41,536 nt of DNA from Candidatus Lloydbacteria bacterium RIFCSPLOWO2_02_FULL_54_12 (GCA_001819095.1 MHLS01000002.1:11517-53052); one strand, 5' to 3'. Shown: positions 2,798 through 37,870, counted from the stretch's first letter. Numbers and translations: made by a program. Notes: a model not told the origin generated them from the sequence alone.

Positions 2798-4150
2798 ATG
2801 ATCACATTCGGCGACGGAAATCTTCGCGTCCCGAAACTTTCGCGCCGCGTTTTTCTTGTCGGCGCGGGAATGACCGATTTTCGGAAGTTCTATCCCGCCA
2901 AACAGTCGTCGGAACTTTGTCTCGAGGCGATGAAAATGGCGGTGGAACGCCTCCGGATCTCGCCGCACGAGTTTCGCCAAAGGGTGAACTACGCGGTCTA
3001 TCCGCAGTTCGCCGATCACTTCGGCGACCAGCTGTTGGCCGAAGCGAAGATCCACGACTATCTCGGCTTTGACCCCATCGGGAATGTCGGCGTGAAGACT
3101 GGCGGCGCGACCGGCGGCACCGGTGCGAACACCGCCATCATGGCCGTTGCGTCGGGGTATGCATCCTGCGTTCCGGTCGTCGGATGGGAACGCATGGACG
3201 AGGTGGACACCCGCCAAGGGAATGCGTACATTGCGGGGGCGGCGTGCAAAGACTTCGAGTCGAACCTCGGCTGGTCGTACACCACGTACTACGCGCTCAT
3301 GATGCGGCGATACCTCGAGGAGAATCATCCCAACAGGGAAACGCTCGCCAAGATCGCGCAGAAGAATCACGGTTATGCGCGCTTCTCGCCGTTCTCGCAG
3401 ATTCCCGGTGACTACACCATCGAGGAGATCTTAAGTGCGAAAGTGGTGTCTGATCCGCTCACATTTCCTGAATGCTGTGCGATGTCGGTCGGCGCGACCG
3501 CGCTCATCTTCTGCGATGAGGAAACCGCGTTTCATCTGACGGATCACCCCGTTGAGGTCACCGGCATCGGAGCGGGTTCACATACGCTACGCACCGCCGA
3601 TCGGCGCAACATGCCGATACTTCTTCTTCCCAATGAAACAGAGGAGACCTACAAGGGTCGCGATCTTGACTGGCCCGGATTCACGAGTTTTCTCGCGGCA
3701 CGGTTCGCGGCGCGCCAGGCGTACCTCATGGCGGGTATCAAGGATCCGGTTGAAGAACTCGACCTTGCCGAGACGCATGACGCTTTCACCGTTTCCGACA
3801 TCCAGACATACGAAGACGTCGGCTTCCGTCCTTACGGTCGGGGTGCAGAGTTCGTTGAGAGCGGCGACGCCTATTTGGGCGGTCGGCTTCCGACGAATCT
3901 CTCCGGCGGGCTCATCGGTTCCATGCATTCGGTCGGCGCCACGGGGCTCTTCCAGTTGGCGGAGATCTTCTGGCAAGTGCGCGGCGAGTGGAACGAAGTT
4001 CACGGCGACGAAAAGCTCTGGCAGAAATACGGCAAGATCAAGCCGCCGGTCTGGCAGTGTCTCCAAGTGCCGGATGCGCGCCGCGGCATGGCGATAAGCC
4101 ACGCCGGTACGGGTTCGCATGTGACGTCAATCATCCTCGAGCGGAGATAG
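2798..4150 (+). CDS. Thiolase-like (SCP-x/archaeal-type) protein lacking the nucleophilic cysteine
   Basis: AAGGAG RBS. Thiolase landmarks are present: VGAGMTDF, MAVASGYASCVPVVGWERM, ETHDAFT and GGLIGSMHSVGATG. The position of the acyl-accepting Cys, 17 residues before the ASG glycine, is Gly (KTGGATGGTG). Confidence 0.8.
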   Translation: MITFGDGNLRVPKLSRRVFLVGAGMTDFRKFYPAKQSSELCLEAMKMAVERLRISPHEFRQRVNYAVYPQFADHFGDQLLAEAKIHDYLGFDPIGNVGVKTGGATGGTGANTAIMAVASGYASCVPVVGWERMDEVDTRQGNAYIAGAACKDFESNLGWSYTTYYALMMRRYLEENHPNRETLAKIAQKNHGYARFSPFSQIPGDYTIEEILSAKVVSDPLTFPECCAMSVGATALIFCDEETAFHLTDHPVEVTGIGAGSHTLRTADRRNMPILLLPNETEETYKGRDLDWPGFTSFLAARFAARQAYLMAGIKDPVEELDLAETHDAFTVSDIQTYEDVGFRPYGRGAEFVESGDAYLGGRLPTNLSGGLIGSMHSVGATGLFQLAEIFWQVRGEWNEVHGDEKLWQKYGKIKPPVWQCLQVPDARRGMAISHAGTGSHVTSIILERR

Positions 4151-6271: not shown

Positions 6272-7804
6272 ATGAAATTTCTTGAGCGCGTATTCGTCCC
6301 GGCGCTTGTCGCCTTTCTTTTCGGTATCGGTTTCGCGGCCTATGCCCTCCCGTCGTTTGCATTCGGAATGCTCTTTCTCCTCGTTGGCGTCGCGGCACTC
6401 GCCCTCTCCGCGTTCTATGAGAATAAAATGCGTCTTTTACTCGTCGGCGCGTGCGCTGTCCTGTTCGCGCTCGGCATGTTTCGTTTCTCCTTTTGGGCGA
6501 GTGCGCCGGACGATCCGTCTCTTGTGGCGATCGTCGGAGAGACCGTTATCCTCCGCGGCGTCGTCATCGACGATCCCGATGTGCGGGAGAAGAATACGCA
6601 GTTGAAGTTTCGTATAGAGAAGATCGTCAACGGCAGTGAGGAGGTCGCCGCAGCAGGCGGACTGCTTGTCATCGTTTCGCGTTACCCCGAGTATCGCTAC
6701 GGCGATATGCTCGAATTCCGCGGAAAGGTCGTGCGTCCCAAGGAATTTTCCGGTGACGACGGAAGGGTCTTTGACTATCCGAACTATCTTAAGGCGAAAG
6801 GGGTCGCGTACCAGATCTTTTACCCCGACGTGCGATTGCTCGGACAAAACGGGGGCAGTGCCGTGCGCGCGAAACTTTTTCAAGCGAAGCATGCATTTCT
6901 CGATCGTCTCGCACTTGCGCTTCCCGAACCCGAGAATGCGCTCGCCGGCGGGATACTCCTCGGTGGAAAACGGTCGCTCGGAGAAGCGTGGACCGAACGT
7001 TTCCGCGAGTCCGGCCTCGTCCACATCGTCGTGCTCTCCGGCTACAACATGACGATCGTCGCGGAGTGGCTCGGGTCTGCGTTCCTCTTTCTCGGATTCT
7101 ACGGGAGCCTCGCCGTCTCCGCCTTCGGCATCACTATTTTTGCACTTACTGCCGGCGCCGGCGCGACGGTCGTGCGTGCGGCGATCATGGCGCTTCTGGT
7201 GCTTCTCGCGCGCCTCACCGGCCGGACCTCCACGATGGGAAGGACACTGCTCGTCGCAGGCGTGCTTATGGTCCTTCATAATCCGTCGATCCTTGCATTC
7301 GATCCCTCGTTCCAGCTTTCTTTCCTTGCTTCACTCGGCCTTGTGTTTGTTGCGCCGCTCATTCGTCTGCGCATCCACTTCTTTCGCTTTTTTCGCGGCC
7401 ATCCTGTCGTTGAAGAAGCGGTGGTTTCGACTCTCGCGACGCAAGTGATGGTACTCCCGCTCCTTCTTTATCAGACGGGTCTGCTTTCGGTCATTGCCAT
7501 CGCCGCAAACGTGCTCGTGCTTCCTTTCATTCCCGCCGCAATGATCACCGCTTTCATTACCGGTCTCGTCGGCTTTCTCGGAACTTTCCCCGCGCTTATT
7601 GCCGCGCTCCCGACACAGGCGCTTCTCTCCTACGTCCTTGCGGTGGCGAAATACGGCGCGGCGCTCCCGTTCGCCGCAGTACACCTCCCGCCGATACCCG
7701 GCTGGTCGGTCTTTCTTTTGTACGGAGTGCTCGCGTTCGTCATTTATCGGTCTTCGCGAGAGGTGTCTCAAGATGTAGAGGGTCCGCACCAAGTTCGTCG
7801 GTGA
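6272..7804 (+). CDS. comEC: ComEC/Rec2-family DNA internalisation membrane protein (no metallo-beta-lactamase domain)
   Basis: Polytopic hydrophobic protein with an N-terminal DUF4131-like region (DDPDVREKNTQLKF). It has the competence-domain motif ESGLVHIVVLSGYNMTIV. Confidence 0.8.
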   Translation: MKFLERVFVPALVAFLFGIGFAAYALPSFAFGMLFLLVGVAALALSAFYENKMRLLLVGACAVLFALGMFRFSFWASAPDDPSLVAIVGETVILRGVVIDDPDVREKNTQLKFRIEKIVNGSEEVAAAGGLLVIVSRYPEYRYGDMLEFRGKVVRPKEFSGDDGRVFDYPNYLKAKGVAYQIFYPDVRLLGQNGGSAVRAKLFQAKHAFLDRLALALPEPENALAGGILLGGKRSLGEAWTERFRESGLVHIVVLSGYNMTIVAEWLGSAFLFLGFYGSLAVSAFGITIFALTAGAGATVVRAAIMALLVLLARLTGRTSTMGRTLLVAGVLMVLHNPSILAFDPSFQLSFLASLGLVFVAPLIRLRIHFFRFFRGHPVVEEAVVSTLATQVMVLPLLLYQTGLLSVIAIAANVLVLPFIPAAMITAFITGLVGFLGTFPALIAALPTQALLSYVLAVAKYGAALPFAAVHLPPIPGWSVFLLYGVLAFVIYRSSREVSQDVEGPHQVRR

Positions 7805-20491: not shown

Positions 20492-20587
20492 CTAGGGGTG
20501 CTCCTCCACCCCGCTTGTGGCCCCACCACAAAAGGAACATTTCGCACTTTATCAAAGTGAGCGAAGGTGGTAGATTGGCGCTCAACT

Positions 20588-21226
20588 ATGGGAAAACCAC
20601 TACAACTTGTACTGATCGACGAAACTGGAGATCCTGGTTTTAAACTCGACGGCGGTTCGAGCCCAATTTTTGCCATTGGCATGGTTATATTTTCCGACTT
20701 TCTTGAGGCGGAAAAAACATCAGTTGCGATTAAGCAACTGCGGAGGGATATTTTTCATAATGATCACGCTGAATTTAAGTTTTCAAAGATACGGCCAGAG
20801 TTTCGCCACAGGTTCTTTGAGGCCATGGCACCATTTGATTTTACCGTAAGGGTTCTCTTGGTGGAAAAAGAAAAATTACGGAGCAAAAATCTCAAGTCAA
20901 ACAAAGGATCATTTTACAATTACTTTGTGAAAATGCTTCTCAAGCACAACAAAGGTACTGTCGCAAACGCAAGCGTGAAAATTGACGGAAGTGGAGACAG
21001 GGAATTTAAAAGAAAATTCTGCTCGTATTTAAGCGGAGAGTTAAACGCTCAGAATAGAATCGTGGAGAAGATAAAATTTGCCGATTCGCGCTCAGATGTG
21101 CTTATTCAATTGGCAGACATGGTGGTGGGTTGTGTTAGACGATGCCACGAATCCGAGAACAAAGAAGAGCAAAAGATGTTTGCCCTTCTTAAGCCAAAGA
21201 TCAGTGATATTTGGAAATTCGAGTAA
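20588..21226 (+). CDS. DUF3800 domain protein
   Basis: LVLIDETGDPG near the N-terminus and VLIQLADMVVG near the C-terminus fit the DUF3800 pattern (DE.G ... LQ.AD). ATG at 20588; the tracked ORF begins at a GTG at 20567. Confidence 0.65.
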   Translation: MGKPLQLVLIDETGDPGFKLDGGSSPIFAIGMVIFSDFLEAEKTSVAIKQLRRDIFHNDHAEFKFSKIRPEFRHRFFEAMAPFDFTVRVLLVEKEKLRSKNLKSNKGSFYNYFVKMLLKHNKGTVANASVKIDGSGDREFKRKFCSYLSGELNAQNRIVEKIKFADSRSDVLIQLADMVVGCVRRCHESENKEEQKMFALLKPKISDIWKFE

Positions 21227-21417
21227 AAGAAAACCCCCTTTCGGAGGTTTTCCCAATCTTCGAACCTATGCTGGTGTCCCAGCCACGCTACCTTAAGGTA
21301 ACAGTTCGGATGCGAAAATCTTTGTACCCTTATATTGCCTTATGGTACCACGCTGGTCAAGTGTACAACACGGGAGTCCCTAAAGGCGTTGAAAAATCTA
21401 GGGAATTAGGAAACACG

Positions 21418-21478
21418 CTTGCCAATCTGTACGCCTTCGCCCCAAACGCTAACTGGCGAAAGCGTACAGATTGGCAAG
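21418..21478. repeat. 61-nt near-perfect extended hairpin upstream of the RM gene
   Basis: The 17-bp perfect arms cttgccaatctgtacgc (21418-21434) / gcgtacagattggcaag (21462-21478) are extended by ttcgcc / ggcgaa (21436-21441 / 21455-21460). The loop is 13 nt. Confidence 0.85.
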
Positions 21479-21648
21479 GAAAAAATCAAGATTGCGAGCG
21501 CAGAAAATTGTGTTACGAGTACAAATTTTGAAATTGACACGAACGACCTGCTGGAAAATATTCGGCTCATATTTCAGTTCATTTTATCACGAAAGAATCT
21601 TCGAAAAAAGAAGTTCCTTGTTACCCATAAATCCGCTATAGTGAAGCG

Positions 21649-24600
21649 ATGGCTGGTTTATTTAAGAACCGTATTATCAAGGAGAAAGCTGGAGTTTTCG
21701 GCATTTCCGATCTTGAGAAAAAACTAGCCATTGTAAAAAAGTGGCATGGGGCGTACCACGATACCACCTCAAGCAATGCGTTGAAGTCAAAGACCGAAAC
21801 ACAGTGCGAACAGGCCTTCAATCACGATTTTTTCGTTGAGATTCTCGGATATAAAACTTTTCCAAACGACGTTTACACCATCGAGCCGAAAGCAAGCACG
21901 GAAGCGACAGGACAAAAACCCGATGCGGCGCTTGGCTGGTTTTCGTCGCGCAAGGGGCGTGTTATCGCAGTGGTTGAGATAAAGGATGCAAAAACACCGC
22001 TTGATCGCTCGCAAAAACGCGAAGGGAACCTAAGCCCCATCCAGCAGGCGTTCAAATACAAGCCGCAGTTTAAGGACTGCGAGTTTGTCATTGCGACCAA
22101 TTTTTACGAGACACGATTGTTCAAGGACAACCAACTCGACTACGAACGCTTTACGCTCGACGAACTTATTGACCCGAAAGACGGCTATTTCAACTTCCGA
22201 AAATTTTATTATCTCCTTTGCGCGGAAAACTTCATTCGAGAGGAAGGAAAAACGGAAACGGCGAACCTCCTTTCCGAGATTCGCGAAGAGCAAGAAGAGA
22301 TCACGAAGGAATTTTATGAATTGTACCGGATGTTGCGCCGTGAGCTCATACGGGACATCGTTCGCAACAACGAAACAGCAAAGAAGCCGAAGAATTTCTA
22401 CAGTATCGCCGTTGAAAAGGCGCAGAAACTCATTGATCGCGTGGTCCTCGTCAGTTTTTTTGAAGACAGCGGATTACTCCCCGAGAAAAAGCTTAAAGAG
22501 GTGGTGAATTATGCGGCGAAAGGAGGAGTGGAGACGCCGGTGTGGGAGACAATGAAGCGATTTTTTGCCGCGATTGACAAGGGGTCGTCGAAACTTGAAA
22601 TCCCCGACGGATATAACGGAGAACTGTTCAAGCCCGATCCGGAACTTGACCAGTTGGTGATCAGCGACGAGATCTGCCGGAAATTTGTCGAATTGGGTAA
22701 GTACAATTTTACTGAAGATTTGAGCGTGAACATTCTCGGGCATATTTTTGAGCAATCAATCAGCGACCTTGAATCATTGCGTAATTTTGCGGAAAAGAAA
22801 GAGGGCGAAGCGGAAAAGAAAGACTCGCGGCGCAAAAAAGAGGGCATCTTCTATACGCCGGATTACATCGTGGATTACATCGTCAAAAATTCTCTGGGAA
22901 AATATCTTGAGGAAAAAGAAAAAGAAGTTTTTGGAAAGTGGCGCCTAAAAGAACATCTTTTGGATGATACCTACGACAAGCGTCTCCTTCCGGCGTATCG
23001 AGAGTACAAAGAGGACTTGTTCAAGATAAAAGTGCTAGACCCCGCCTGTGGCTCCGGCGCGTTTCTTGTGCGCGTATTTGATTATCTGTGTGACGAACAC
23101 AATCGTGTTGCCGAGGCAATGGAGGCGCTCGGGGACACGTCTGGCCTTTTTGATATGGAACTCAAGAAAAAAATCCTCGAGTGCAATATCTTTGGTGTAG
23201 ACCTTAACCGCGAAAGCGTCGAGATCACGAAACTCTCGCTCTGGCTCAAGTCGGCAAGAAAAGGAGAAAAACTCACGAACCTCTCGCGAAATATCAAATG
23301 CGGCAATAGTTTGATCGACGACCCTGCGGTTGCGGGCGAGAAGGCATTCGACTGGAAAAGAGAGTTTGAGGATATTATGGACGATGGCGGGTTCGATGTT
23401 GTGGTTGGCAATCCGCCGTATGTTCAATTGAGTAAAATTGAAGCGACGACCGAGGTCGAAAAAAACTATTTACTGAAAAAATACAACACATCAGGTGGTC
23501 GTCTGAATACTTTTATATTTTTTATCCATCTCGCCGAAGAATTGCTAAAGAAAAATGGCTCCCTAAGTTTCATAATTCCCAACACACTACTTACTCAAGA
23601 ATATTACGCAGATACCAGAAAATTATTGGTAGAGAAATTGTGTCTTGAGCAGATTGTAACTTATCCGCACATGCCCTTTGCCGGCGCTGTGGTGGAAAAT
23701 ATTACTTTTTTTGCAAAAAAAGCTCTCCTGAAACACATCGGCATATTTCAGCAAACTCCTGAAGAAATAACTCAGATTGGACAAATAAACCTAGCGGAGA
23801 TAGGCAAGAAAGAAAATTATTTAATCGACATTAGAAATGACAGTGTTTGTAGAAAAATAGACGCCCTGAAACTTCCTTTGTTGAACGGTATTGTAAATAT
23901 AAATCAGGCCATTGCCTTAAAAGGCGATAAGAGTCTGAGCGTCAAAGAAACTTTTAAGGACGGCTACTACAAGCTAATTGATGGTAGAAACATAAGTAGA
24001 TACGCACTTGCTTGGTCTGGGGAATACTTGGAATATGAGCTTAGTCGCATACATTCATGTAAAACCAAAGACATATTTCTTCAGCCGAAATTATTTTTCA
24101 GAAGGGTGTCCGCTGACCTTGTTTTCACATATGATGATGAAAACTATTTTGCCCTCAACACGCTTGTCGTCATAACACCAAAGACAGGAAAGAATGTCAG
24201 CCTAAAATCGTTGTTGGCCGTGCTGAACTCAAAACTCATAAATTACTATTACATCAACAAGTATAAGTCTACAAAAAAAGTATTTTCCGAAATACAGGCT
24301 CGAACCATTGGATTGATACCCACACCAGCACTTGATGGGCGATCTCTCGAGGAGAGGGCAGAGACAATGCTCCGAATGAATAAAGAATTTCACGAAAAAT
24401 TGGAAAAGCACCTCACCATCCTCAAATCAGACCTTGGGATAGAAAAATTGCCGACGAAACTGGAAAAGTTCTATGAACTGTCTTTTGAAGATTTTGTGAA
24501 AGCGGCGAAGGTTAAGGTGTTGCTCTCCAAAAAATCGGAACTTTTCGACTATTTCGAAAAAGCAAAAAGCGAACTCGCCGGACTCAAGGCGAACATCGGC

Positions 24601-24690
24601 GCAACCGACAGCGCGATCGATCAAATGGTCTACAAACTCTACGACCTTACCCCGGAAGAAATAAAAATCGTCGAACAGTCAACAAAATGA
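21649..24690 (+). CDS. Type IIG restriction-modification enzyme (fused PD-(D/E)xK nuclease, gamma-class N6-adenine methyltransferase and target-recognition domain)
   Basis: N-terminal PDAALGWF...VVEIKDAK (D...ExK), methyltransferase motif I VLDPACGSGAFL, motif IV VVGNPPY, and a long C-terminal TRD. Total length is 1013 aa. Confidence 0.85.
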   Translation: MAGLFKNRIIKEKAGVFGISDLEKKLAIVKKWHGAYHDTTSSNALKSKTETQCEQAFNHDFFVEILGYKTFPNDVYTIEPKASTEATGQKPDAALGWFSSRKGRVIAVVEIKDAKTPLDRSQKREGNLSPIQQAFKYKPQFKDCEFVIATNFYETRLFKDNQLDYERFTLDELIDPKDGYFNFRKFYYLLCAENFIREEGKTETANLLSEIREEQEEITKEFYELYRMLRRELIRDIVRNNETAKKPKNFYSIAVEKAQKLIDRVVLVSFFEDSGLLPEKKLKEVVNYAAKGGVETPVWETMKRFFAAIDKGSSKLEIPDGYNGELFKPDPELDQLVISDEICRKFVELGKYNFTEDLSVNILGHIFEQSISDLESLRNFAEKKEGEAEKKDSRRKKEGIFYTPDYIVDYIVKNSLGKYLEEKEKEVFGKWRLKEHLLDDTYDKRLLPAYREYKEDLFKIKVLDPACGSGAFLVRVFDYLCDEHNRVAEAMEALGDTSGLFDMELKKKILECNIFGVDLNRESVEITKLSLWLKSARKGEKLTNLSRNIKCGNSLIDDPAVAGEKAFDWKREFEDIMDDGGFDVVVGNPPYVQLSKIEATTEVEKNYLLKKYNTSGGRLNTFIFFIHLAEELLKKNGSLSFIIPNTLLTQEYYADTRKLLVEKLCLEQIVTYPHMPFAGAVVENITFFAKKALLKHIGIFQQTPEEITQIGQINLAEIGKKENYLIDIRNDSVCRKIDALKLPLLNGIVNINQAIALKGDKSLSVKETFKDGYYKLIDGRNISRYALAWSGEYLEYELSRIHSCKTKDIFLQPKLFFRRVSADLVFTYDDENYFALNTLVVITPKTGKNVSLKSLLAVLNSKLINYYYINKYKSTKKVFSEIQARTIGLIPTPALDGRSLEERAETMLRMNKEFHEKLEKHLTILKSDLGIEKLPTKLEKFYELSFEDFVKAAKVKVLLSKKSELFDYFEKAKSELAGLKANIGATDSAIDQMVYKLYDLTPEEIKIVEQSTK
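24643..24690 (+). repeat. Copy 0 (in-gene) of the RM-tail repeat
   Basis: The sequence gaccttaccccggaagaaataaaaatcgtcgaacagtcaacaaaatga encodes DLTPEEIKIVEQSTK*, the 3' end of the type IIG gene. Confidence 0.8.
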
Positions 24691-24783
24691 CCGTCGTGTC
24701 AACGGTCATTGCGTTTATTGAAAGAGTCTTATAAAATGTTACTATAGTTTCTACTCCTTTTTCTTTTTAGGCACACAAAATCT

Positions 24784-25152
24784 ATGGAAAGTTGGACATT
24801 AACTTGGACAAAACTTACAGGACTATCTAACAGTTCTGTAACAGCGCTTGCTGGTAATTTAGCAGGTGTTTATAGGTTTTCTTATTTGGCTGAAGATGGT
24901 AATTATTACATATTTTATGTTGGGCAGACAGAAGATATCAAAAAGAGATTATTGGAACATTTGTCGTCGAGTGAAACAAATGTTTGTATAAAAAATTATC
25001 TTTCATCAAAAAAATGTTTTTTTAGATATGCAAAGATAACCAAAGACTACATAAGAAATGCCGCAGAAAAACAGATGTATAAACAATATGAGCCAAGTTG
25101 TAATGAGAAAGAACCAAGTGGTCGCGATGACGTGAAAGTGAATCTAACATGA
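24784..25152 (+). CDS. Stand-alone GIY-YIG nuclease-domain protein
   Basis: GVYRFSY (GIY), YIFYVGQT (YIG), KKRLLEH (Arg/His), AEKQMY (Glu) and CNEKEP (Asn) occur in canonical order. It is 122 aa with no additional DNA-binding domain. Confidence 0.7.
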   Translation: MESWTLTWTKLTGLSNSSVTALAGNLAGVYRFSYLAEDGNYYIFYVGQTEDIKKRLLEHLSSSETNVCIKNYLSSKKCFFRYAKITKDYIRNAAEKQMYKQYEPSCNEKEPSGRDDVKVNLT

Positions 25153-25856
25153 CACTTACTATTTGTATCATAGCAAAGGATGGAGTTTTATTTGCTTCCG
25201 ATAGTCGCGCGAGTTCTTTCCTAACAAGTAACGATACAGTCAAGAAAATTTTTAAACTAGATGACCATAATGCAGTAGGCATTGCAGGTGATGGCCCCTT
25301 GGCCATGCATTTTTTTGACACCATTTCTCGCCAGTTAAATTTTCGCAATGGTATATCTGTTTTGGCAGAACAGATGCGCTCGCTTGGCAAAGCACGATTC
25401 GACGAATTTTTTTCTCATCAAGCGCCAAAAGATCGTCCGTCGTTAAGTATTATTCTTGCTGGTTACATGCCAGACGGAAAGCCAGAAATTTATACTCTGA
25501 ACAGTAATGACAACTTTGTTCCACGGAAAAGCCCGATAGGTTTTGAATGTATCGGGATACCAATCATTGCCAACTATTTACTTAACCGTTTATATGAACC
25601 AGACATTACCACACAACACGCCGCAGAACTTGCTACCTTTTGTATAAAAGAAACTAGCTCACAAGACAACCGCGTGGGTGGGCCTACGCAAATAGCTTCT
25701 TTTTCAGACACAAAACAGTATGCGGAGTTGTCGCGAGATGAAGTTGAAAAGATAGAGCAAAAATGTGACCAGTTTCGGTTGCTACAGAAGGGCAACTTTT
25801 ACCCGGAGGATAGCGCTGGCGGAGCAACAAATCCACAAGACGCAACAAGGTCTTAG
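25149..25856 (+). CDS. Proteasome beta-subunit/HslV-like Ntn hydrolase
   Basis: The start forms an ATGA overlap with the GIY-YIG stop. MTLTICIIAKDGVLFASDSRAS places Thr1, Asp17 and Arg19 exactly as in 20S beta subunits. VKKIFKLDD aligns with GKKLFQID (Lys33 region), AVGIAGDG matches, and QDNRVGG aligns with RDSASGG. Confidence 0.75.
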   Translation: MTLTICIIAKDGVLFASDSRASSFLTSNDTVKKIFKLDDHNAVGIAGDGPLAMHFFDTISRQLNFRNGISVLAEQMRSLGKARFDEFFSHQAPKDRPSLSIILAGYMPDGKPEIYTLNSNDNFVPRKSPIGFECIGIPIIANYLLNRLYEPDITTQHAAELATFCIKETSSQDNRVGGPTQIASFSDTKQYAELSRDEVEKIEQKCDQFRLLQKGNFYPEDSAGGATNPQDATRS

Positions 25857-25893
25857 CCCAGCGTTAAATAGGGGACAGCCCCTCCAAAGATAT

Positions 25894-25942
25894 GGCCTCA
25901 CCCCCCGAAGAAATAAACATCGTTGAGCAGGGAACAAAATAG
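25894..25942 (+). repeat. Copy 1 of the RM-tail repeat (orphan 3' end of a type IIG gene)
   Basis: The sequence ggcctcaccccccgaagaaataaacatcgttgagcagggaacaaaatag would encode GLTPEEINIVEQGTK* apart from one extra C. It is identical to copy 2 except for that C and the last base. Confidence 0.85.
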
Positions 25943-26035
25943 CCAATTCACATGAAAGAAAATCAATTTGAAACAATCAAGCGACATATTGAGCGCTCCT
26001 CGGTCTTATGCAAGAAGTATGTGAGCATGTAATTT

Positions 26036-27031
26036 ATGAAACACAACAACCGTGCGACGGCTGTTTTTATTGATGGTAGTTGGCTTTATTCGACCTCGCA
26101 TCGAATCAATAAAAAGATTAATTATGTCACGTTTTTCAATACTCTTAAAAAAAACTTTGGTCCGAAAGCGGAGATCCACTTTTTTGGTGCGATTAATCCG
26201 ACTGACAAACAACAGAAGAAATTTTATCTTCTACTTGAAAAAAGTGGGTATGTAGTACATTGTGTAGGACTTGTAAAAATAAAAATGGACGGGAAAGACA
26301 CTTTTTTTTCAAAGGGGTTGGGATTGGATATTGACTTAGCGGTAAATGCAATGAAAATTTTCCCCTCAGTGGGAAAGTTTGTTCTTGTTTCGGGTGACGG
26401 CGATTTTGCACCCCTGTTGAAACAAGCAGTTAGTTATGGGATTGGTGTGTCAATAGTTTCGCTACCATTTAGCACAGGGTATCTTTTAAGAAAGGTTGTC
26501 GGTGGATCTTTTGTAAACCTCGAAACGCTGATAGAAGAACGAAAAAGTGTTAAGAAATTACCAATATTGATAAAGAGTAAAGAGAAAAAACCATTGGTTT
26601 CAGGTAGTTTATATATAGAAAAAGGGGATTACTATGGACCGTACCTCCGCATAAGAAATTTAATGATGTCTGCAAAAGGCAGCATTACTATAATTGACTG
26701 GTATATTGACGATCAGATTCTTGCAATGATTAAACTTCTAAAAACCGAAATTGAAGTCACTATTTTTACACAACAGATAGAGCCAGCAGATTTTTGTATA
26801 CAGGTTAAAAAATTACGAGAGGAGGGTCGGTCAATTACTATTCACAAAACCAAAAGGTTTCACGATCGATTTATGGGAATAGATAATGTTTGGTGGCACA
26901 GCGGACACTCGTTTAAAGATTTGGGAAGTAAAGACTCTATGTTAAATAAAATATTAGAAAAAGAATCTATAAACAAATTAGTGCATAGCGTAGAAAAAGA
27001 AAAGAAAAGTTTAGCAGAAATTTGCAAATAG
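26036..27031 (+). CDS. NYN/LabA-like (PIN-fold) RNase domain fused to a PLD-like HDR domain
   Basis: The N-terminal part has AVFIDGSWLY and FVLVSGDGDFAPLL (NYN/DUF88 motifs). The C-terminal part has RFHDRFMGIDNVWWHSGHSFKDLG, an HxK-type PLD signature with Arg for Lys. Confidence 0.7.
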   Translation: MKHNNRATAVFIDGSWLYSTSHRINKKINYVTFFNTLKKNFGPKAEIHFFGAINPTDKQQKKFYLLLEKSGYVVHCVGLVKIKMDGKDTFFSKGLGLDIDLAVNAMKIFPSVGKFVLVSGDGDFAPLLKQAVSYGIGVSIVSLPFSTGYLLRKVVGGSFVNLETLIEERKSVKKLPILIKSKEKKPLVSGSLYIEKGDYYGPYLRIRNLMMSAKGSITIIDWYIDDQILAMIKLLKTEIEVTIFTQQIEPADFCIQVKKLREEGRSITIHKTKRFHDRFMGIDNVWWHSGHSFKDLGSKDSMLNKILEKESINKLVHSVEKEKKSLAEICK

Positions 27032-27050
27032 CATATTGGAATAGGTCTGC

Positions 27051-27098
27051 GGCCTCACCCCCGAAGAAATAAACATCGTTGAGCAGGGAACAAAATAA
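27051..27098 (+). repeat. Copy 2 of the RM-tail repeat
   Basis: The sequence ggcctcacccccgaagaaataaacatcgttgagcagggaacaaaataa encodes GLTPEEINIVEQGTK* in a clean frame with no gene body upstream. Confidence 0.85.
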
Positions 27099-27191
27099 CT
27101 CCCCACTACGGATATCGCCAAAGAGTAAAACGCGGGGTTGTTAGGCCTCGCGCTTTTTAGCTAAACATATTTAGTTGTTGTTATCGGGTAT

Positions 27192-27335
27192 TTAGCGCTT
27201 TGGTGTATCGCCGTACCCCCTCTTGGGGACATGCTCAACAACATAGCGTTCCGGGTTCTCCCTTGCCTTCTCAACGGGGGCAAACCTGCCATTTCCCGCA
27301 TTCCGGCCGAGTTTGAACGATTTTGATTCGCTCAT
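27192..27335 (-). CDS. Possible 47-aa small protein (MSESKSFKLGRNAGNGRFAPVEKARENPERYVVEHVPKRGYGDTPKR)
   Basis: This ATG-to-TAA ORF is below the ORF-track length cutoff. The GRF..(K/E)..A..NP....V.E pattern resembles a widespread short basic protein I recall from other bacteria. No RBS is visible. Confidence 0.3.
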   Translation of the reverse strand: MSESKSFKLGRNAGNGRFAPVEKARENPERYVVEHVPKRGYGDTPKR

Positions 27336-27553
27336 TGTGGTTTTGTTTTAGGTCACTCTTTTGTAATGTTATTTTGTACACAGCGGTGATTTCTGCGTGG
27401 CAACCCTTTTCTCGTCGAATCTCATCGATCAAAGGCAGGTGAATCCCTCGGTGGAATTTTGTTGGCCCAAGGTCGGCTTGACCAAAAAAACCAGTAAAAT
27501 GAACACCTCAAGGCGATTGTATCATAGTATGTAAAGATTATCAACACTACATG

Positions 27554-27581
27554 TTGACATTTCATACACCTTGTGTATGCT
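27554..27581 (+). promoter_or_regulatory. Putative promoter with an embedded palindromic operator for the XRE-Panacea gene
   Basis: TTGACA (27554-27559), 16-nt spacer, TATGCT (27576-27581). The inverted repeat catacac-ctt-gtgtatg (27563-27579) lies between and over the boxes. Confidence 0.45.
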
Positions 27582-27624
27582 GGATGTATATCAATAACTA
27601 TTCACTAGTTAATTCCAGTAACGC

Positions 27625-28299
27625 ATGAGGACTAAATATGCATCGTTCATAAAAACCCTCCGGACAAAGAGGGGTGTTTCGCAATCCGAAGTAGCTAAGA
27701 AATTAGATATCTCACGTTCGTCGTACATCGCCGTTGAGCAAGGCATACGCGAACTTACTCTCGGAGAATTTGAAAAGCTTTCGGAAATTTTGGGCACATC
27801 CCTCGAAGATTTGGAGCGTGGGGAATTCCCTAATTACGAAAAATACAAGCAGATGATCCTTGCCTTTTTGCGTTTGAATAAAGATCTTACAAAGACAAAA
27901 CTCGCAAAACTTTTGTACCTGTCAGATTTCGGTTGGTACTACTCACATCTCGAGAGCATGAGCGGGATGCAATATCGGAAGATCCAATATGGTCCTGTTG
28001 CCGATACGTATTTTCGCCTCATTGATGAGATGACAACGAACGGTGAAATAACAATTGAGCAGACGGAGGGTGGGGCAATGCGCATCACCGAGACTCGCGG
28101 TGGAGCGAAAATCCCGCTCTCCGAGATCAGTGCGGACGAAATGCGGTTGATACAAAAAATCGACAAGAAATGGAAAGGGAAAAAAACCGCCGAAATTGTG
28201 AAGTTTTCGCATCAACAGATGCCCTTCATGTTTGCGGAACCAAACGACATTGTCTCTTACGACGTTTTCACTCAAGAAAATCCCGACGAAATTTATTAG
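27625..28299 (+). CDS. XRE-family HTH fused to a Panacea (DUF4065/SocA-like) antitoxin domain
   Basis: The N-terminal part has RTKRGVSQSEVAKKLDISRSSYIAVEQG (Cro/C1 HTH). The C-terminal part has KTKLAKLLYLSDFGWYYSHLESMSGMQYRKIQYGPV, matching the DUF4065 pattern. Confidence 0.8.
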   Translation: MRTKYASFIKTLRTKRGVSQSEVAKKLDISRSSYIAVEQGIRELTLGEFEKLSEILGTSLEDLERGEFPNYEKYKQMILAFLRLNKDLTKTKLAKLLYLSDFGWYYSHLESMSGMQYRKIQYGPVADTYFRLIDEMTTNGEITIEQTEGGAMRITETRGGAKIPLSEISADEMRLIQKIDKKWKGKKTAEIVKFSHQQMPFMFAEPNDIVSYDVFTQENPDEIY

Positions 28300-28301
28300 C
28301 C

Positions 28302-28694
28302 ATGAAGTACGAGGTCACCTTCAGGCCTTTTACCGAAAGGCATTTCATAAAGACATTTGCCAAGAAATACCGAGGTGCTTGGGACCGCACACTGAAAGGT
28401 CTGGAGGTGGAGTTCGCTTTCGTCGAGTTGCTTTTTGGAAAGCAGATTGCCGAAACGATAAGTACTTCTGGCGATAATGATATAAGAATTTGTAAAACCG
28501 AGTTTAAAATTGCGGGCACTGAAATGTCCCGCCACGCTTCGGGGAATAGGTGCATTATCGCAATACAAAAAAGCGCCATGACTGTGCACGTGCTCTTGGT
28601 GTACCACAAAGGGGACATTGACGGACCCAGTGAAACGGCCGCATGGCAGTCTGTCATTAGGGACAATTATCCCGAGTATGCGAAGTTTCTATGA
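28302..28694 (+). CDS. Putative toxin partner of the Panacea antitoxin (family not recognised; possibly RelE-fold)
   Basis: 130-aa ORF starting 2 nt after the antitoxin stop. The assignment rests on small size and position. GNRCIIAIQKSAMTVHVLLVYHKGD loosely resembles the C-terminal strand pattern of RelE/ParE-type toxins. Confidence 0.45.
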   Translation: MKYEVTFRPFTERHFIKTFAKKYRGAWDRTLKGLEVEFAFVELLFGKQIAETISTSGDNDIRICKTEFKIAGTEMSRHASGNRCIIAIQKSAMTVHVLLVYHKGDIDGPSETAAWQSVIRDNYPEYAKFL

Positions 28695-28726
28695 TTTTTC
28701 TGCATCCCCGTGGCAAAGCCACTGGG

Positions 28727-28768
28727 TATTACACACCAATAAAAATCGTTGAGCAAAGAACAAAGTAA
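28727..28768 (+). repeat. Copy 3 (degenerate) of the RM-tail repeat
   Basis: The sequence tat tac aca cca ata aaa atc gtt gag caa aga aca aag taa reads YYTPIKIVEQRTK*, the same tail with the EE codons deleted. Confidence 0.6.
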
Positions 28769-28789
28769 CCATCCATCGAGGATGGTTAC
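28765..28789. terminator. Perfect 10-bp hairpin at the right edge of the island (weak terminator candidate)
   Basis: Stem gtaaccatcc / ggatggttac with loop atcga, followed only by TTT. Confidence 0.4.
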
Positions 28790-28838
28790 TTTGCGGGGAG
28801 GCGCATCTTTCTGGCGCCACCGTGTTTCGGGGTCTCGC

Positions 28839-29100: not shown

Positions 29101-29826
29101 TTAATAGGTGATCTTGGCGATGGTTCCGCGGATGTTCCGATCTGCCAAGCGTATGGATAATTTTTTCGTCCCCTTCTTGATCTCTGCGACGGCAATTCCG
29201 GATTGTAGCGTCACACCGACACCGTATTTTTCAGCAACCTTTCGAACGAACTTCAGGCCGTTCCCTCTTTGTTCCGGTGCACGCCCCGATATACGCTCGT
29301 AGATCGCGATGGTGAGCGCCTCAATGTCGTCCTTGATGTCCGGTCGAACACGCAGAAGCGTCGCACGAATACCCACACCACGATCCGCGAGTACAACGAT
29401 GCGTTTCGGGAGATCGTACGCGAAGAAAATGCCGGTGACGTCGGGCCAATTCCCGATATTGTGATCGAAAGAGTTGTTGCCGATCTCTCCGGTCATGGAT
29501 GCGACGATTGGGGCGATTGCGCGAGTTTCCTCCTGTCGGTCAAGAAGGATCGCAAGAGTGTTCTGGCGCGCACGAAAGCGATCCGGCGTATCACAGTACA
29601 CCTCGGAAGGAAGTTCCGGAGGGGTGACACTTTCGGCCCATACGCGTGCGAGCGCGAAGAAGTCCTTGCTGAATCGCTCTATCGTATCGCGGTCGTAGTG
29701 CCGATGCCCGCCGGGGCTCCTTTCGGCCCGCAGTTTCCCGGACGCATCCCAGCGTCGAAGCGTATCGATCGAAACTCCAAGCAACTTGGCTACTTCGTTT
29801 ATGCTCATCATCCCATGTTTAGTCAT
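29101..29826 (-). CDS. MerR-type HTH fused to a GHKL (histidine-kinase-like/RsbW-like) ATPase domain
   Basis: MSINEVAKLLGVSIDTLRRWDASGKL (MerR HTH), N-box EIGNNSFDHN, G1 ADRGVGI and G2 QRGNGLKF. The start is set at the ATG at 29826 because the longer ORF (to 29877) would run through three direct repeats that look regulatory. Confidence 0.7.
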   Translation of the reverse strand: MTKHGMMSINEVAKLLGVSIDTLRRWDASGKLRAERSPGGHRHYDRDTIERFSKDFFALARVWAESVTPPELPSEVYCDTPDRFRARQNTLAILLDRQEETRAIAPIVASMTGEIGNNSFDHNIGNWPDVTGIFFAYDLPKRIVVLADRGVGIRATLLRVRPDIKDDIEALTIAIYERISGRAPEQRGNGLKFVRKVAEKYGVGVTLQSGIAVAEIKKGTKKLSIRLADRNIRGTIAKITY

Positions 29827-36860: not shown

Positions 36861-37870
36861 AGACCGGTCTTGTCATCGGCAAATTCCTCCCGCCCCATCG
36901 GGGGCACCTGTATCTCATCGACGTTGCGCGTGCGCATTGTGACCGGTTGATCGTTGTCGTGTGCGACAGGGCGGGAGATGTTGTAGAGGCCCGTTCGCGT
37001 GCGGGGTGGTTGCGGGAACTCTATCCCGACGTCGATGTGCGCGTGGTGCCGGATATCGGTTTCGATGATGATTCCAAGAAGTGGGCAGCTTATACGGTGG
37101 AGTTCTTGGGTTTTGCGCCGGACATCGTCTTCACTTCCGAAGACTACGGCGAACCGTACGCGAAGTTTCTCGGTGCGGAGCATTACCTTGTCGACCACGA
37201 GCGCAAGGGTGTCTTTATGTCCGGAACGACAGTCCGTGCCGACGTGTCGAAAGCATGGTCCTATCTCCCTCCTCAAGTGCGGGTGCATTTCGTGCGTCGC
37301 GTTGCCGTCGTCGGTGCCGAGTCAACGGGGACAACGACCTTGGCGAGGGCACTTGCCGAGCGTTACGAAACGACGTGGGTTCCGGAGTACGGCAGGGAGT
37401 ACTCGGAAGAGAAGATGCGCCGCGGCGTTCTCGAGTGGAAGAGCGACGAATTCATCCACATTGCCGTGGAGCAGCTGCGGCGGGAGAATGAGGCGGCACG
37501 GAATGCGAAGCATCTCCTCGTCTGTGACACCGACGCATTTGCCACCACGCTGTGGCACGAGCGTTACATGGGTCTTCCGTCTGAAACGGTCGCACGCATT
37601 GCGGATCAGGTAGTGCACGACCTCTATATATTGACGGGTGACGAGATACCCTTCGTTCAAGACGGTTTCCGCGACGGTGAGCACATCCGCCACGGGATGC
37701 AACGGAGATTTTTTGAGGAATTGAAGCGCACTGGACGTCCGTATCTCCACGTGGAAGGTTCTCCCGAGGAGCGCCTTGCGGCGGCCTCGCGCGCCGTCGA
37801 CAAACTTTTGACGCTTCCCCACGGTCGCCGCCTCACACAGGCACATATCGACGAGTCTCTTGCGCGCTGA
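36857..37870 (+). CDS. nadR: NadR-type bifunctional NMN adenylyltransferase / ribosylnicotinamide kinase, without the HTH domain
   Basis: ATGA overlap with the pnuC stop. GKFLPPHRGHLYLI (GxFxPxHxGH) and MSGTTVR are present. The P-loop VVGAESTGTTTLARALA has Thr where the Walker A Lys is expected. No N-terminal HTH is present. Confidence 0.8.
   Translation: MKTGLVIGKFLPPHRGHLYLIDVARAHCDRLIVVVCDRAGDVVEARSRAGWLRELYPDVDVRVVPDIGFDDDSKKWAAYTVEFLGFAPDIVFTSEDYGEPYAKFLGAEHYLVDHERKGVFMSGTTVRADVSKAWSYLPPQVRVHFVRRVAVVGAESTGTTTLARALAERYETTWVPEYGREYSEEKMRRGVLEWKSDEFIHIAVEQLRRENEAARNAKHLLVCDTDAFATTLWHERYMGLPSETVARIADQVVHDLYILTGDEIPFVQDGFRDGEHIRHGMQRRFFEELKRTGRPYLHVEGSPEERLAAASRAVDKLLTLPHGRRLTQAHIDESLAR

Follow-up and report, generated by a model that had tools for sequence, protein, structure and literature searches.

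The window, by which we mean the whole 41,536-nt stretch of DNA analysed here, contains a low-GC defence island in a Candidatus Lloydbacteria (CPR) genome. The island is situated between RNase_T and DUF4325/MerR genes. Its G+C content is 43.8% in the RM gene and 39.3%, 35.2% and 45.3% in the three gene cassettes behind it, and 47% for the DUF3800 gene, as against 57% in the flanks. ComEC is also encoded within the window.

Genes, tail copies and hairpins of the island (positions counted from the first nucleotide of the window)
Feature	Position	Strand	Remarks
DUF3800 gene	20567..21226	+	Upstream of RM gene, part of low-GC island; Pfam PF12686 3.3e-15; PADLOC PDC-M04A 1.5e-13
Type IIG RM gene	21649..24690	+	Intact, 1013 aa; Pfam, PADLOC, full-length alignment
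T0	24637..24690	+	In-frame tail of the 1013-aa RM gene, ...LYDLTPEEIKIVEQSTK-stop
Terminator-like hairpin	24686..24710	+	9-bp stem; 5' arm begins in last codons of T0
Cassette 1	24784..25856	+	GIY-YIG (24784-25152) and proteasome-like (25149-25856) pair; Pfam
T1	25891..25942	+	Orphan tail YGLTP[+1 C]EEINIVEQGTK-stop, without gene body
Cassette 2	26036..27031	+	NYN-PLD fusion gene; Pfam NYN 3.4e-18; PADLOC PDC-S05 6e-26, residues 171-323
T2	27045..27098	+	Orphan tail VCGLTPEEINIVEQGTK-stop; starts 14 nt past NYN-PLD stop codon
Terminator-like hairpin	27131..27152	+	9-bp stem, 6 GC pairs, T-run; 32 nt past T2
Cassette 3	27625..28694	+	HTH-Panacea (SocA-like) gene (27625-28299) and 130-aa partner (28302-28694); Pfam HTH_3 3.8e-15, SocA_Panacea 1.7e-13
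T3	28727..28768	+	Degenerate orphan tail YYTP--IKIVEQRTK-stop; at right G+C boundary of island
Hairpin	28760..28794	.	15-bp stem; overlaps last 9 nt of T3; terminator-like on both strands; faces convergent DUF4325 gene

Judged from its sequence, the product of the RM gene fits the type IIG (Eco57I/MmeI-like) definition: one polypeptide that combines a predicted nuclease region at the N-terminus with an N6-adenine methylase of the gamma class and a specificity domain of TaqI_C type. Pfam matches include Eco57I (2.6e-42) and TaqI_C (4.6e-24) as well as N6_Mtase and MmeI_Mtase, the PADLOC model REase_MTase_IIG matches over residues 23-690 (9e-117), and the protein aligns end to end with homologues of 1005-1030 aa.

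The original prediction held that the tail of this gene recurs three times downstream with no gene body in front of it, and all four copies, T0 within the gene and T1, T2 and T3 behind it, proved real and correctly placed. Repeat detection returned a four-copy family at 24660-24693, 25912-25945, 27068-27101 and 28738-28771, and also one three-copy family of 54 nt. The pattern GAAGAAATAAANATCGTYGARCA matches T0, T1 and T2 and gave 0.00 matches over 100 dinucleotide shuffles; the chance expectation for the tail copies is none. A fifth copy was not found in the window by an nhmmer profile built from the four. The order of the modules is identical in independent ENA, NCBI and JGI assemblies spanning T1 and T2, only k=31 Logan contigs being broken within the 47-nt repeat, and thus the array is not an assembly artefact.

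T1 and T2 are 48/51 identical, and 25894-25942 differs from 27051-27098 solely, as had been noticed, by one extra C and by TAG in place of TAA. T0 is less similar to either (43/54 with T2, 41/50 with T1), while T3, which does lack two codons (the EE codons), is identical to the other copies at 30-32 of 42 positions. Compared with T0, T1 to T3 show 9-11 differences, of which about half fall on third-codon positions; this bears out the earlier view that the orphans are not products of slippage in the resident gene. Even so, the rare ending IVEQxTK-stop is common to all four copies. On either side of the copies, the adjoining 40 nt are no more alike than shuffles (p 0.02-1.0 in 12 tests, none significant after correction), so the repeat is confined to the segment from LYGLT to the stop. 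Its two limits, the conserved LYGLT codons and the stop codon, coincide with those of DNA conservation among RM genes. The longest invariant block common to all four copies is at most 6 nt.

The copies are best read as the last ~48 nt of type IIG RM genes from one narrow lineage, with the predicted product ...LYGLTPEEIxIVEQxTK; only T0 is still part of a gene. The exact ending IVEQxTK is absent from the other 119 RM homologues listed, the nearest being IVESQTK in P0225, and it occurs in no tail found outside the window. Among RM genes that have otherwise diverged, similarity at the DNA level is confined to the tail. Searches by tblastn with 120 homologues and with a full-length profile detected no remnants of an RM body near the orphan tails.

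Each gap between successive tails holds one functional unit, as originally proposed: the GIY-YIG and proteasome-like pair, the NYN-PLD gene, and the HTH-Panacea gene with its 130-aa partner, the last behind a 526-nt spacer (27099-27624). All cassettes are co-oriented, with one repeat between neighbouring units, and the three tail-separated elements, of 1.1-1.6 kb, carry defence genes only. A terminator-like hairpin follows T0, T2 and T3 alike within 35 nt, resembling real gene ends. Cassettes 1 and 3 are each preceded by a terminator-like hairpin and, on weak evidence, by promoter-like sites; sites of this kind are not enriched (17 vs 14.2 expected in shuffles). The tails themselves have no hairpin potential on either strand (DNA folding -0.8 to -5.5 kcal/mol; z -0.1 to +1.4) and contain no inverted repeats.

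In other CPR contigs the GIY-YIG and proteasome-like pair is conserved and invariably adjacent, with DNA homology to cassette 1 covering 24774-25847 only. Cassette 1 occurs without flanking tails at three loci (L074, L075 and L078), and cassettes 2 and 3 do so at L039. NYN-PLD homologues begin 3 nt past type IIG stop codons at L035 and L039, so an RM tail ahead of NYN-PLD is a native neighbour of that gene; at L039 a homologous Panacea pair follows in the same order downstream. Wherever an assembly carries exactly this RM gene and extends as far as the tails, the arrangement is the same. The strain variant L081, 100% identical over 2706 nt, diverges after 25843, where, with 13 nt of the proteasome-like gene still to go, it passes into a different downstream gene. 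Both C-terminal endings of the proteasome-like gene are found among its homologues, and together these observations show homologous exchange at shared modules in the population. This is the sole strain-level breakpoint found, and it lies within cassette 1, outside any tail. RM decay at comparable loci (L039, L018, L021, L026 and L058) takes the form of full-length frameshifted genes. No relative was found in which intact RM genes end at each copy, the arrangement that the original prediction had named as the mark of simple decay, and no related genome with an empty site was recovered.

Orphan tails recur in unrelated genomes. At L057 ~120 nt separate the RM tail from the orphan tail YGLTPDEIAIVKKCGAKQ-stop; the TAA of this orphan overlaps the ATG of DarT, and DarG comes next; at L025 an ATGA-coupled ORF of 102 aa follows the RM tail and itself ends in a second tail; at L050, L022 and L031 orphan tails stand alone. 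By our own comparison of sequences, the two tails are 22/26 identical at L025 and ~67% identical at L057. In a profile search, five of the seven orphan tails begin at profile positions 20-23, which is the LYGLT region. Such tails are present in several phyla, with quite different sequences. In three collections no other stretch matched the tail pattern exactly more than once, the two public scans being incomplete in that neither returned the window's own contig.

The explanation that we favour, giving it an even chance, is that the tail copies are scars of repeated recombination at the conserved end of the RM gene. It also corresponds to the better-fitting of the two alternatives in the original prediction, namely that RM genes had been replaced one after another by recombination anchored in the conserved segment that codes for the C-terminus. 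T1 to T3 would be displaced ends of other or earlier RM genes, marking the seams of a mosaic defence island that would have grown by tandem accretion at the RM gene's 3' end. We infer that an incoming segment would recombine within the conserved tail-coding stretch, bring a tail that leaves the RM reading frame unbroken, and push the prior tail and everything behind it downstream. T3, at the island edge, would then be the oldest and most decayed copy, and T1 and T2, around NYN-PLD, would bound the latest tail-bounded insertion. The joining would be homology-dependent, by host recombination in a ComEC-encoding organism, and a dedicated integrase is less likely as the machinery; the enzymology may be that of the host's homologous recombination, of an integrase supplied in trans, or of an insertion that duplicates a long target. 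The orphan tails are now without a function of their own and can still be used as short portable homology for further exchange.

Several observations argue for serial recombination at the tail. The limits of the repeat match RM DNA conservation while the flanks are unrelated, all four copies share a rare ending, the terminator-like hairpins stand where they stand after real gene ends, the modules differ in G+C, and NYN-PLD is natively found behind type IIG genes. No RM-body remnant is left, whereas real decay leaves full-length frameshifted genes; L081 documents homologous exchange and short orphan tails recur at other loci; and ComEC is present in a window that has no recombinase. It is, moreover, established that the specificity domains of type I and type IIG systems recombine at their conserved flanks (PMC2853133, PMC3467074). 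Against this reading, no tail exchange was observed directly, the one strain breakpoint being in cassette 1, and a plain double crossover of two RM genes would yield one hybrid tail and no orphan, and the first tail-cassette-tail unit would require a hypothetical step, be it an illegitimate joint, a circular intermediate or duplication of the target. For RecA, 48 nt at 80% identity is a poor substrate. Cassettes 1-3 are tail-free in other genomes, no second array was found, and close RM homologues lie on elements with large serine recombinases.

This last association, which at L070 goes as far as a large serine recombinase gene overlapping the RM stop codon, favours site-specific, gene-restoring integration, an unlikely alternative in which small elements with a tail-mimicking attP would enter the RM 3' end and stack in tandem, their integrase lost or supplied in trans as in a CIME or pseudo-SCC. 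Islands integrate at the 3' ends of tRNA, ssrA, fda and rlmH, and here too each element is bounded by direct repeats that match the target gene's 3' end, running from an internal point to the exact gene end, with the target intact and the oldest copy at the far edge. Yet the ORFs of 90 aa or more across the 41.5 kb yielded no integrase, recombinase or transposase domain, nor was there a recombinase among the called genes in the examined parts of the 53-kb source contig, although one may be encoded elsewhere in the ~1-Mb genome. Defence genes are all that the three elements contain, their modules are found tail-free elsewhere, and no invariant block exceeds 6 nt. The differing orphan tails of several phyla would call for many tail-specific integrases, and large serine recombinases are not known to leave 48-nt direct repeats. 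The integron-like or att-like array of the original prediction found no support: the window has no recombinase, the tails do not fold, the modules occur elsewhere without tails, and the assemblies with exactly this RM gene all show one arrangement. A dedicated platform, with the RM tail as attI, the orphan tails as attC and promoterless cassettes caught by a specialised recombinase, would account for co-oriented cassettes with one repeat between successive units, but it is hardly credible, as no IntI-type tyrosine recombinase is found in window ORFs of at least 90 aa or in the source-contig gene tables, the tails form no single-strand hairpins, the repeats are coding remnants of the RM gene, terminator-like hairpins separate the units and (weak) promoter-like sites accompany cassettes 1 and 3, and no other stretch in the three collections gave more than one match to the tail pattern. 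A phase-variable specificity shufflon was likewise rejected; the orphans contain no TaqI_C or other RM-body sequence, the repeats are direct and not inverted, and there is no recombinase.

T1 and T2 taken by themselves, 48/51 identical repeats of more than 30 bp around 1102 nt that hold NYN-PLD alone and no mobility gene, resemble insertion with long target duplication, in which the NYN-PLD segment would have entered the RM 3' end and duplicated ~47 bp, the other tail pairs being older events of the same kind. Reported duplications measure 46-47 bp and come mostly from competent species (PMC2853133), and ComEC is present here. We nevertheless consider this improbable. Arbitrary limits would be expected, but both limits are those of the conserved coding segment from LYGLT to stop; the tails at L025 and L057 share these limits and are not duplicates of each other; and T0/T1 and T2/T3 are too diverged for recent duplication. 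Plain decay, by which former tandem type IIG genes, each with an accessory module, lost three members to independent deletions that left only the ends, would agree with the hairpins after T2 and T3 and with the decay of RM genes in related loci. It is very improbable all the same: three deletions would each have had to halt within ~50-70 nt of the stop of a 3-kb gene (roughly (100/3000)^3 ~ 4e-5), no other RM fragment remains, decay elsewhere leaves full-length frameshifted genes, and T1 and T2 are near-identical though supposedly from different genes.

Integrases, transposons and recombination in the flanks of core genes are still the main explanations offered for the assembly of defence islands. 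If RM ends are recurrent crossover points, this would account for accessory defence genes (NYN-PLD, DarTG, TA pairs) often standing directly behind RM genes, and orphan tails, which are inexpensive to search for, would be a sequence signature of island seams and of new defence genes nearby. Such a process would also operate in CPR bacteria, which have few recognisable mobile elements. A broader generalisation, which we think rather unlikely, is that the conserved C-terminal stretch of type IIG and related methylase genes is a recombinase-free portable recombination site across phyla, tail-bracketed defence genes circularising and re-inserting behind RM genes with a similar tail, so that RM genes would be general landing pads for accessory defence genes. 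The finding itself is a well-documented scar pattern with a proposed mechanism.

Among known systems, integron arrays with defence genes (bioRxiv 10.1101/2024.07.02.601686) have similarly small, co-oriented, repeat-separated defence cassettes, but here there is no IntI and no attC-type hairpin, the repeats are gene remnants, and the cassettes have promoter-like and terminator-like signals of their own. Exchange of type I and type IIG specificity domains (PMC2853133, PMC3467074) likewise uses short conserved RM coding segments as crossovers and gives mosaic RM loci; it swaps sequence within one ORF and leaves no orphan copies, whereas here whole foreign genes lie between the copies. Insertion with long target duplication at RM loci (Nobusato et al. 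2000; Furuta, Abe and Kobayashi 2010, PMC2853133), with duplications of 46-47 bp in Haemophilus and Thermus, shares the ~46-47 bp direct repeats around an insert without a mobility gene, the RM setting and the competent organisms (here, the ComEC gene). There, however, the insert is the RM unit and the duplicated target arbitrary host DNA, while here the insert is a non-RM defence gene and the repeat a conserved RM end with limits set by coding conservation. ICESt1/3 and CIMEs accrete at fda, and SCC composite islands at rlmH. Tandem accretion of integrative or cis-mobilizable elements at the 3' end of a conserved gene is also known from the ssrA islands of Dehalococcoides (PMC3146451). We rate the array as an altered form of this accretion: unlike those systems, the window is without any integrase, the repeats are ~48 nt and 76-81% alike bar one pair, the target is a mobile defence gene and not a housekeeping gene, and the modules are 1.1-1.6 kb and occur elsewhere without repeats; as in those systems, the direct repeats reproduce the end of a single target gene, that gene is intact, and modules without a recombinase of their own are stacked in one orientation behind it.

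The original prediction described four copies of the 3' end of a type IIG RM gene, and these are real: at the same coordinates, repeat detection recovered two families, one of four copies and one of three copies of 54 nt. One copy (T0) terminates the intact RM gene, while the other three (T1 to T3) are orphans with no gene body. A 23-nt degenerate pattern matches T0, T1 and T2, as against 0.00 matches in shuffled sequence, and an nhmmer profile built from the four copies found no fifth tail in the 41.5-kb window. T1 and T2 agree at 48/51 positions, their cores differing only in one extra C and in TAG versus TAA; T0 agrees with T2 at 43/54 and with T1 at 41/50, and T3, in which two EE codons are missing, matches the other copies at 30-32 of 42 positions. 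Neither the 40 nt on the 5' side nor the 40 nt on the 3' side of the copies resemble each other beyond the level of shuffled sequence, so the repeat consists only of the codons from LY(G/D)LT to the stop codon. The order of modules and tails is identical in independent ENA, NCBI and JGI assemblies spanning T1 and T2, and only k=31 Logan contigs break within the 47-nt repeat. Two other matches in the window were rejected as a fifth tail or RM remnant: 37604-37660 is a NadR motif within a 397-aa NadR-like gene, and 29317-29541 (E = 3e-4, one of 120 queries, antisense to a MerR gene) was taken as chance. A hairpin follows each of T0 and T3, beginning in the last codons in both cases, but the similarity of the two in sequence is not significant (p = 0.135) and homology is not claimed.

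Coordinates of the tails, the island modules and associated features
Feature	Position	Remarks
T0	24637-24690	end of 1013-aa ORF
T1	25891-25942	orphan tail
T2	27045-27098	orphan tail
T3	28727-28768	orphan tail at right G+C boundary of island
DUF3800 gene	20567-21226	first island element
DUF3800-IX RNA motif (RF02968)	21252-21319 (- strand)	45 bits; gathering score 36.8
106-aa ORF	21211-21531	mechanical ORF
Palindrome	21418-21478	24-nt arms, 96% complementary, 13-nt loop
Intact type IIG RM gene	21649-24690	Eco57I, N6_Mtase, MmeI_Mtase, TaqI_C; PADLOC REase_MTase_IIG 9e-117
GIY-YIG + proteasome-like pair (c1)	24784-25856	between T0 and T1; 122 aa and 235 aa
NYN-PLD fusion (c2)	26036-27031	between T1 and T2; C-terminal half matches PADLOC PDC-S05
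526-nt spacer, then HTH-Panacea gene + 130-aa partner (c3)	27099-28694	between T2 and T3
ComEC gene	6272-7804	Competence and DUF4131 domains
RecJ C-terminal fragment	64-948	
DarT/macro-domain (DarG-like) pair	L057 786-2016 (- strand)	
AAA_21 + DUF4276 (PARIS-like) pair, RadC gene, reverse-transcriptase fragment	L025 3549-7571	after doubled tail
RM gene of IVEQN-tail family, then CRISPR repeat array	L051 ~3380-3560	

At the protein level the repeat corresponds to ...VYxLYGLTxEEIxIVE..., a conserved C-terminal motif of Eco57I/TaqI_C-type enzymes. It is present in most of the 120 listed homologues, with highly variable final residues. All four window copies end in IVEQxTK-stop. This exact ending occurs in none of the 119 other listed homologues (the nearest, P0225, has IVESQTK) and in none of the tails recovered from other genomes or metagenomes, a small comparison set of about 20 true RM tails; the four copies therefore come from one narrow RM lineage. 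T1 to T3 differ from T0 at 9-11 positions and are not copies of it. T0, T2 and T3 each have a terminator-like hairpin no more than 35 nt downstream, like real gene ends. Neither tblastn of the 120 homologues nor a full-length RM profile run against six-frame fragments found remnants of an RM body around T1 to T3. The codon-position split between T0 and T1/T2 (1:3:5 by our own count) is too small a sample to indicate past purifying selection, and the sequences are too short to decide on crossover signatures or hybrid tails among T0 to T3.

The tails lie in a low-GC island (about 20-28.8 kb), flanked by RNase_T and DUF4325/MerR genes, inside the 57% G+C backbone of this Rifle-aquifer Candidatus Lloydbacteria (CPR/Patescibacteria) genome. 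Rifle data sets containing this population include SRR2090155, SRR2090161, SRR3989344 and the reads underlying ERZ27254836 and ERZ27254752. G+C differs among the modules (RM 43.8%, c1 39.3%, c2 35.2%, c3 45.3%), so the island is a mosaic. Integrase, recombinase and transposase domains are absent from every ORF of the window; the ComEC gene indicates that the organism encodes a DNA-uptake channel. An Rfam search of the window found no family over the tails, its sole match being the DUF3800-IX motif. This motif is upstream of the RM gene, immediately 3' of the DUF3800 gene and within the 106-aa ORF, which for that reason is probably no gene. The near-perfect palindrome between the DUF3800 and RM genes, which could be a terminator or operator, also gave spurious miRNA matches in the Rfam search.

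Rearrangement of the island can be seen in a strain variant from the same aquifer, L081 (1-2823). It matches window positions 23138-25843 (2706 nt) with 100% identity, covering the 3' part of the RM gene, T0 and c1. At 13 nt before the proteasome-like stop codon, L081 switches to a different downstream gene (MNKKTIFIGHPIGGD...) in place of T1. Both C-terminal endings of the proteasome-like gene occur among its homologues, so the island is indeed reshuffled by homologous exchange at shared modules.

The cassette modules are also found elsewhere. The GIY-YIG and proteasome-like genes form a two-gene module, adjacent in every case (the window, L074, L075, L078 and L080). The module is represented in over 200 protein clusters, many of them 85-91% identical, and its CPR contexts are unrelated; as the proteasome-like protein has no PADLOC match, the pair is an uncharacterised candidate defence pair. 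In L035 and L039, NYN-PLD homologues start 3 nt past a type IIG stop codon, the tail of the type IIG gene being ...ELTPEEIKVIET-stop in the former and ...GLTSEEIEIVET-stop in the latter; an RM tail is therefore the native upstream neighbour of NYN-PLD. The same close translational coupling (3 nt) is seen across the CPR loci L033-L038 and L039. A second NYN gene follows NYN-PLD in L033-L036 and L038, L037 ends inside NYN-PLD, and in L039 the RM gene is split into three ORFs with NYN-PLD intact.

Unrelated organisms also carry short orphan tails, and in a profile search five of seven orphans start within the LYGLT region (profile positions 20-23). In L057, an RM tail is followed after about 120 nt by an orphan YGLTPDEIAIVKKCGAKQ-stop, then by DarT and a macro-domain (DarG-like) gene; the orphan's TAA overlaps the DarT start codon (TAATG), implying a former coupling of DarTG to a type IIG gene. 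The RM tail of L025 (Elusimicrobia) is followed by a 102-aa ORF, coupled through ATGA, and a second tail forms the end of this ORF. The L050 orphan begins 12 nt past the stop of an FG-GAP gene, and those of L022 and L031 lie among housekeeping genes or IS fragments. An AAATAA.CGGGGACAGGTACAATTAAT-like sequence adjoins several RM or orphan tails (L057 ~1985-2080, L058, L022, and window 25866-25893, before T1) and is not at T2 or T3. No second array was found: scans of three collections matched 16 genome, 21 metagenome and 1 viral stretch, and none of these other stretches had the exact pattern more than once. Neither public scan returned the window's own contig, and about half of the exact matches were unrelated genes happening to encode EEIKIVEQ. 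On plasmids, tblastn of a 26-aa tail consensus showed no array; most of its 22 matches were RM genes of haloarchaea or unlisted pseudogenes.

We suggest that at each acquisition incoming DNA would be joined to the resident locus within the conserved tail, so that the RM ORF would retain a complete end and the earlier tail would be pushed downstream. The oldest copy would be T3, which is the most decayed and lies at the island edge, and T1 and T2 would bracket the most recent event. We favour host homologous recombination as the means of joining, because the limits of the repeat are those of DNA conservation among RM genes, because the pattern spans phyla with differing tail sequences, and because ComEC is present while an integrase is not. 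Against it, plain double crossover does not produce orphans, a 48-nt stretch of about 80% identity makes a poor substrate, and no exchange at a tail has been seen directly. A self-consistent route might be circularisation of a tail-cassette-tail segment via its terminal repeats, followed by its insertion at any similar tail through one crossover; the NYN-PLD circle junction would then read …GCATATTGGAATAG (NYN-PLD end) + tail + GCCAATTCACATGAAAG, and the matching empty junction …CCTCCAAAGATATGGCC + tail + CTCCCCACTACGG.

The integron-like or att-like array of the original prediction is not supported. Besides the lack of a recombinase in the window, the tails show no single-strand folding on either strand (z-scores -0.1 to +1.4), and hairpins and promoter-like sites lie between the units, which is weak evidence. 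In L074, L075 and L078, three CPR contexts unrelated to one another, the c1 pair has no tail nearby, DNA homology to these copies being confined to 24774-25847; in L039 NYN-PLD and the Panacea module stand in the same order with no tail between or after them; and all assemblies that carry the exact RM gene and reach the tails have one arrangement. With its defining features failing, a dedicated integron-like platform is scarcely credible.

Site-specific, gene-restoring integration with a recombinase supplied in trans would yield the same architecture, and large serine recombinases do accompany close homologues of the window RM gene, yet we consider it unlikely. The closest of them (L066-L071) are on elements with these enzymes; L066 additionally has a Prim-Pol primase and a UvrD-like helicase, its RM stop being 2 nt from a convergent metallo-beta-lactamase-fold gene, and in L070 the recombinase gene overlaps the RM stop codon. 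[quoted passage not shown] RM decay in comparable loci takes the form of full-length frameshifted genes (L039, L018, L021, L026 and L058), not 48-nt stubs; independent decay of tandem RM genes is very unlikely, at about 4e-5 by our rough estimate.

In the literature searched, coverage of which is incomplete, no account of module boundaries formed by RM C-terminal remnants came to light. Related phenomena are known: direct repeats of gene 3' ends arise via tandem accretion (PMC3146451), long target duplications occur at RM loci (PMC2853133), and recombination takes place within conserved RM segments (PMC3467074).
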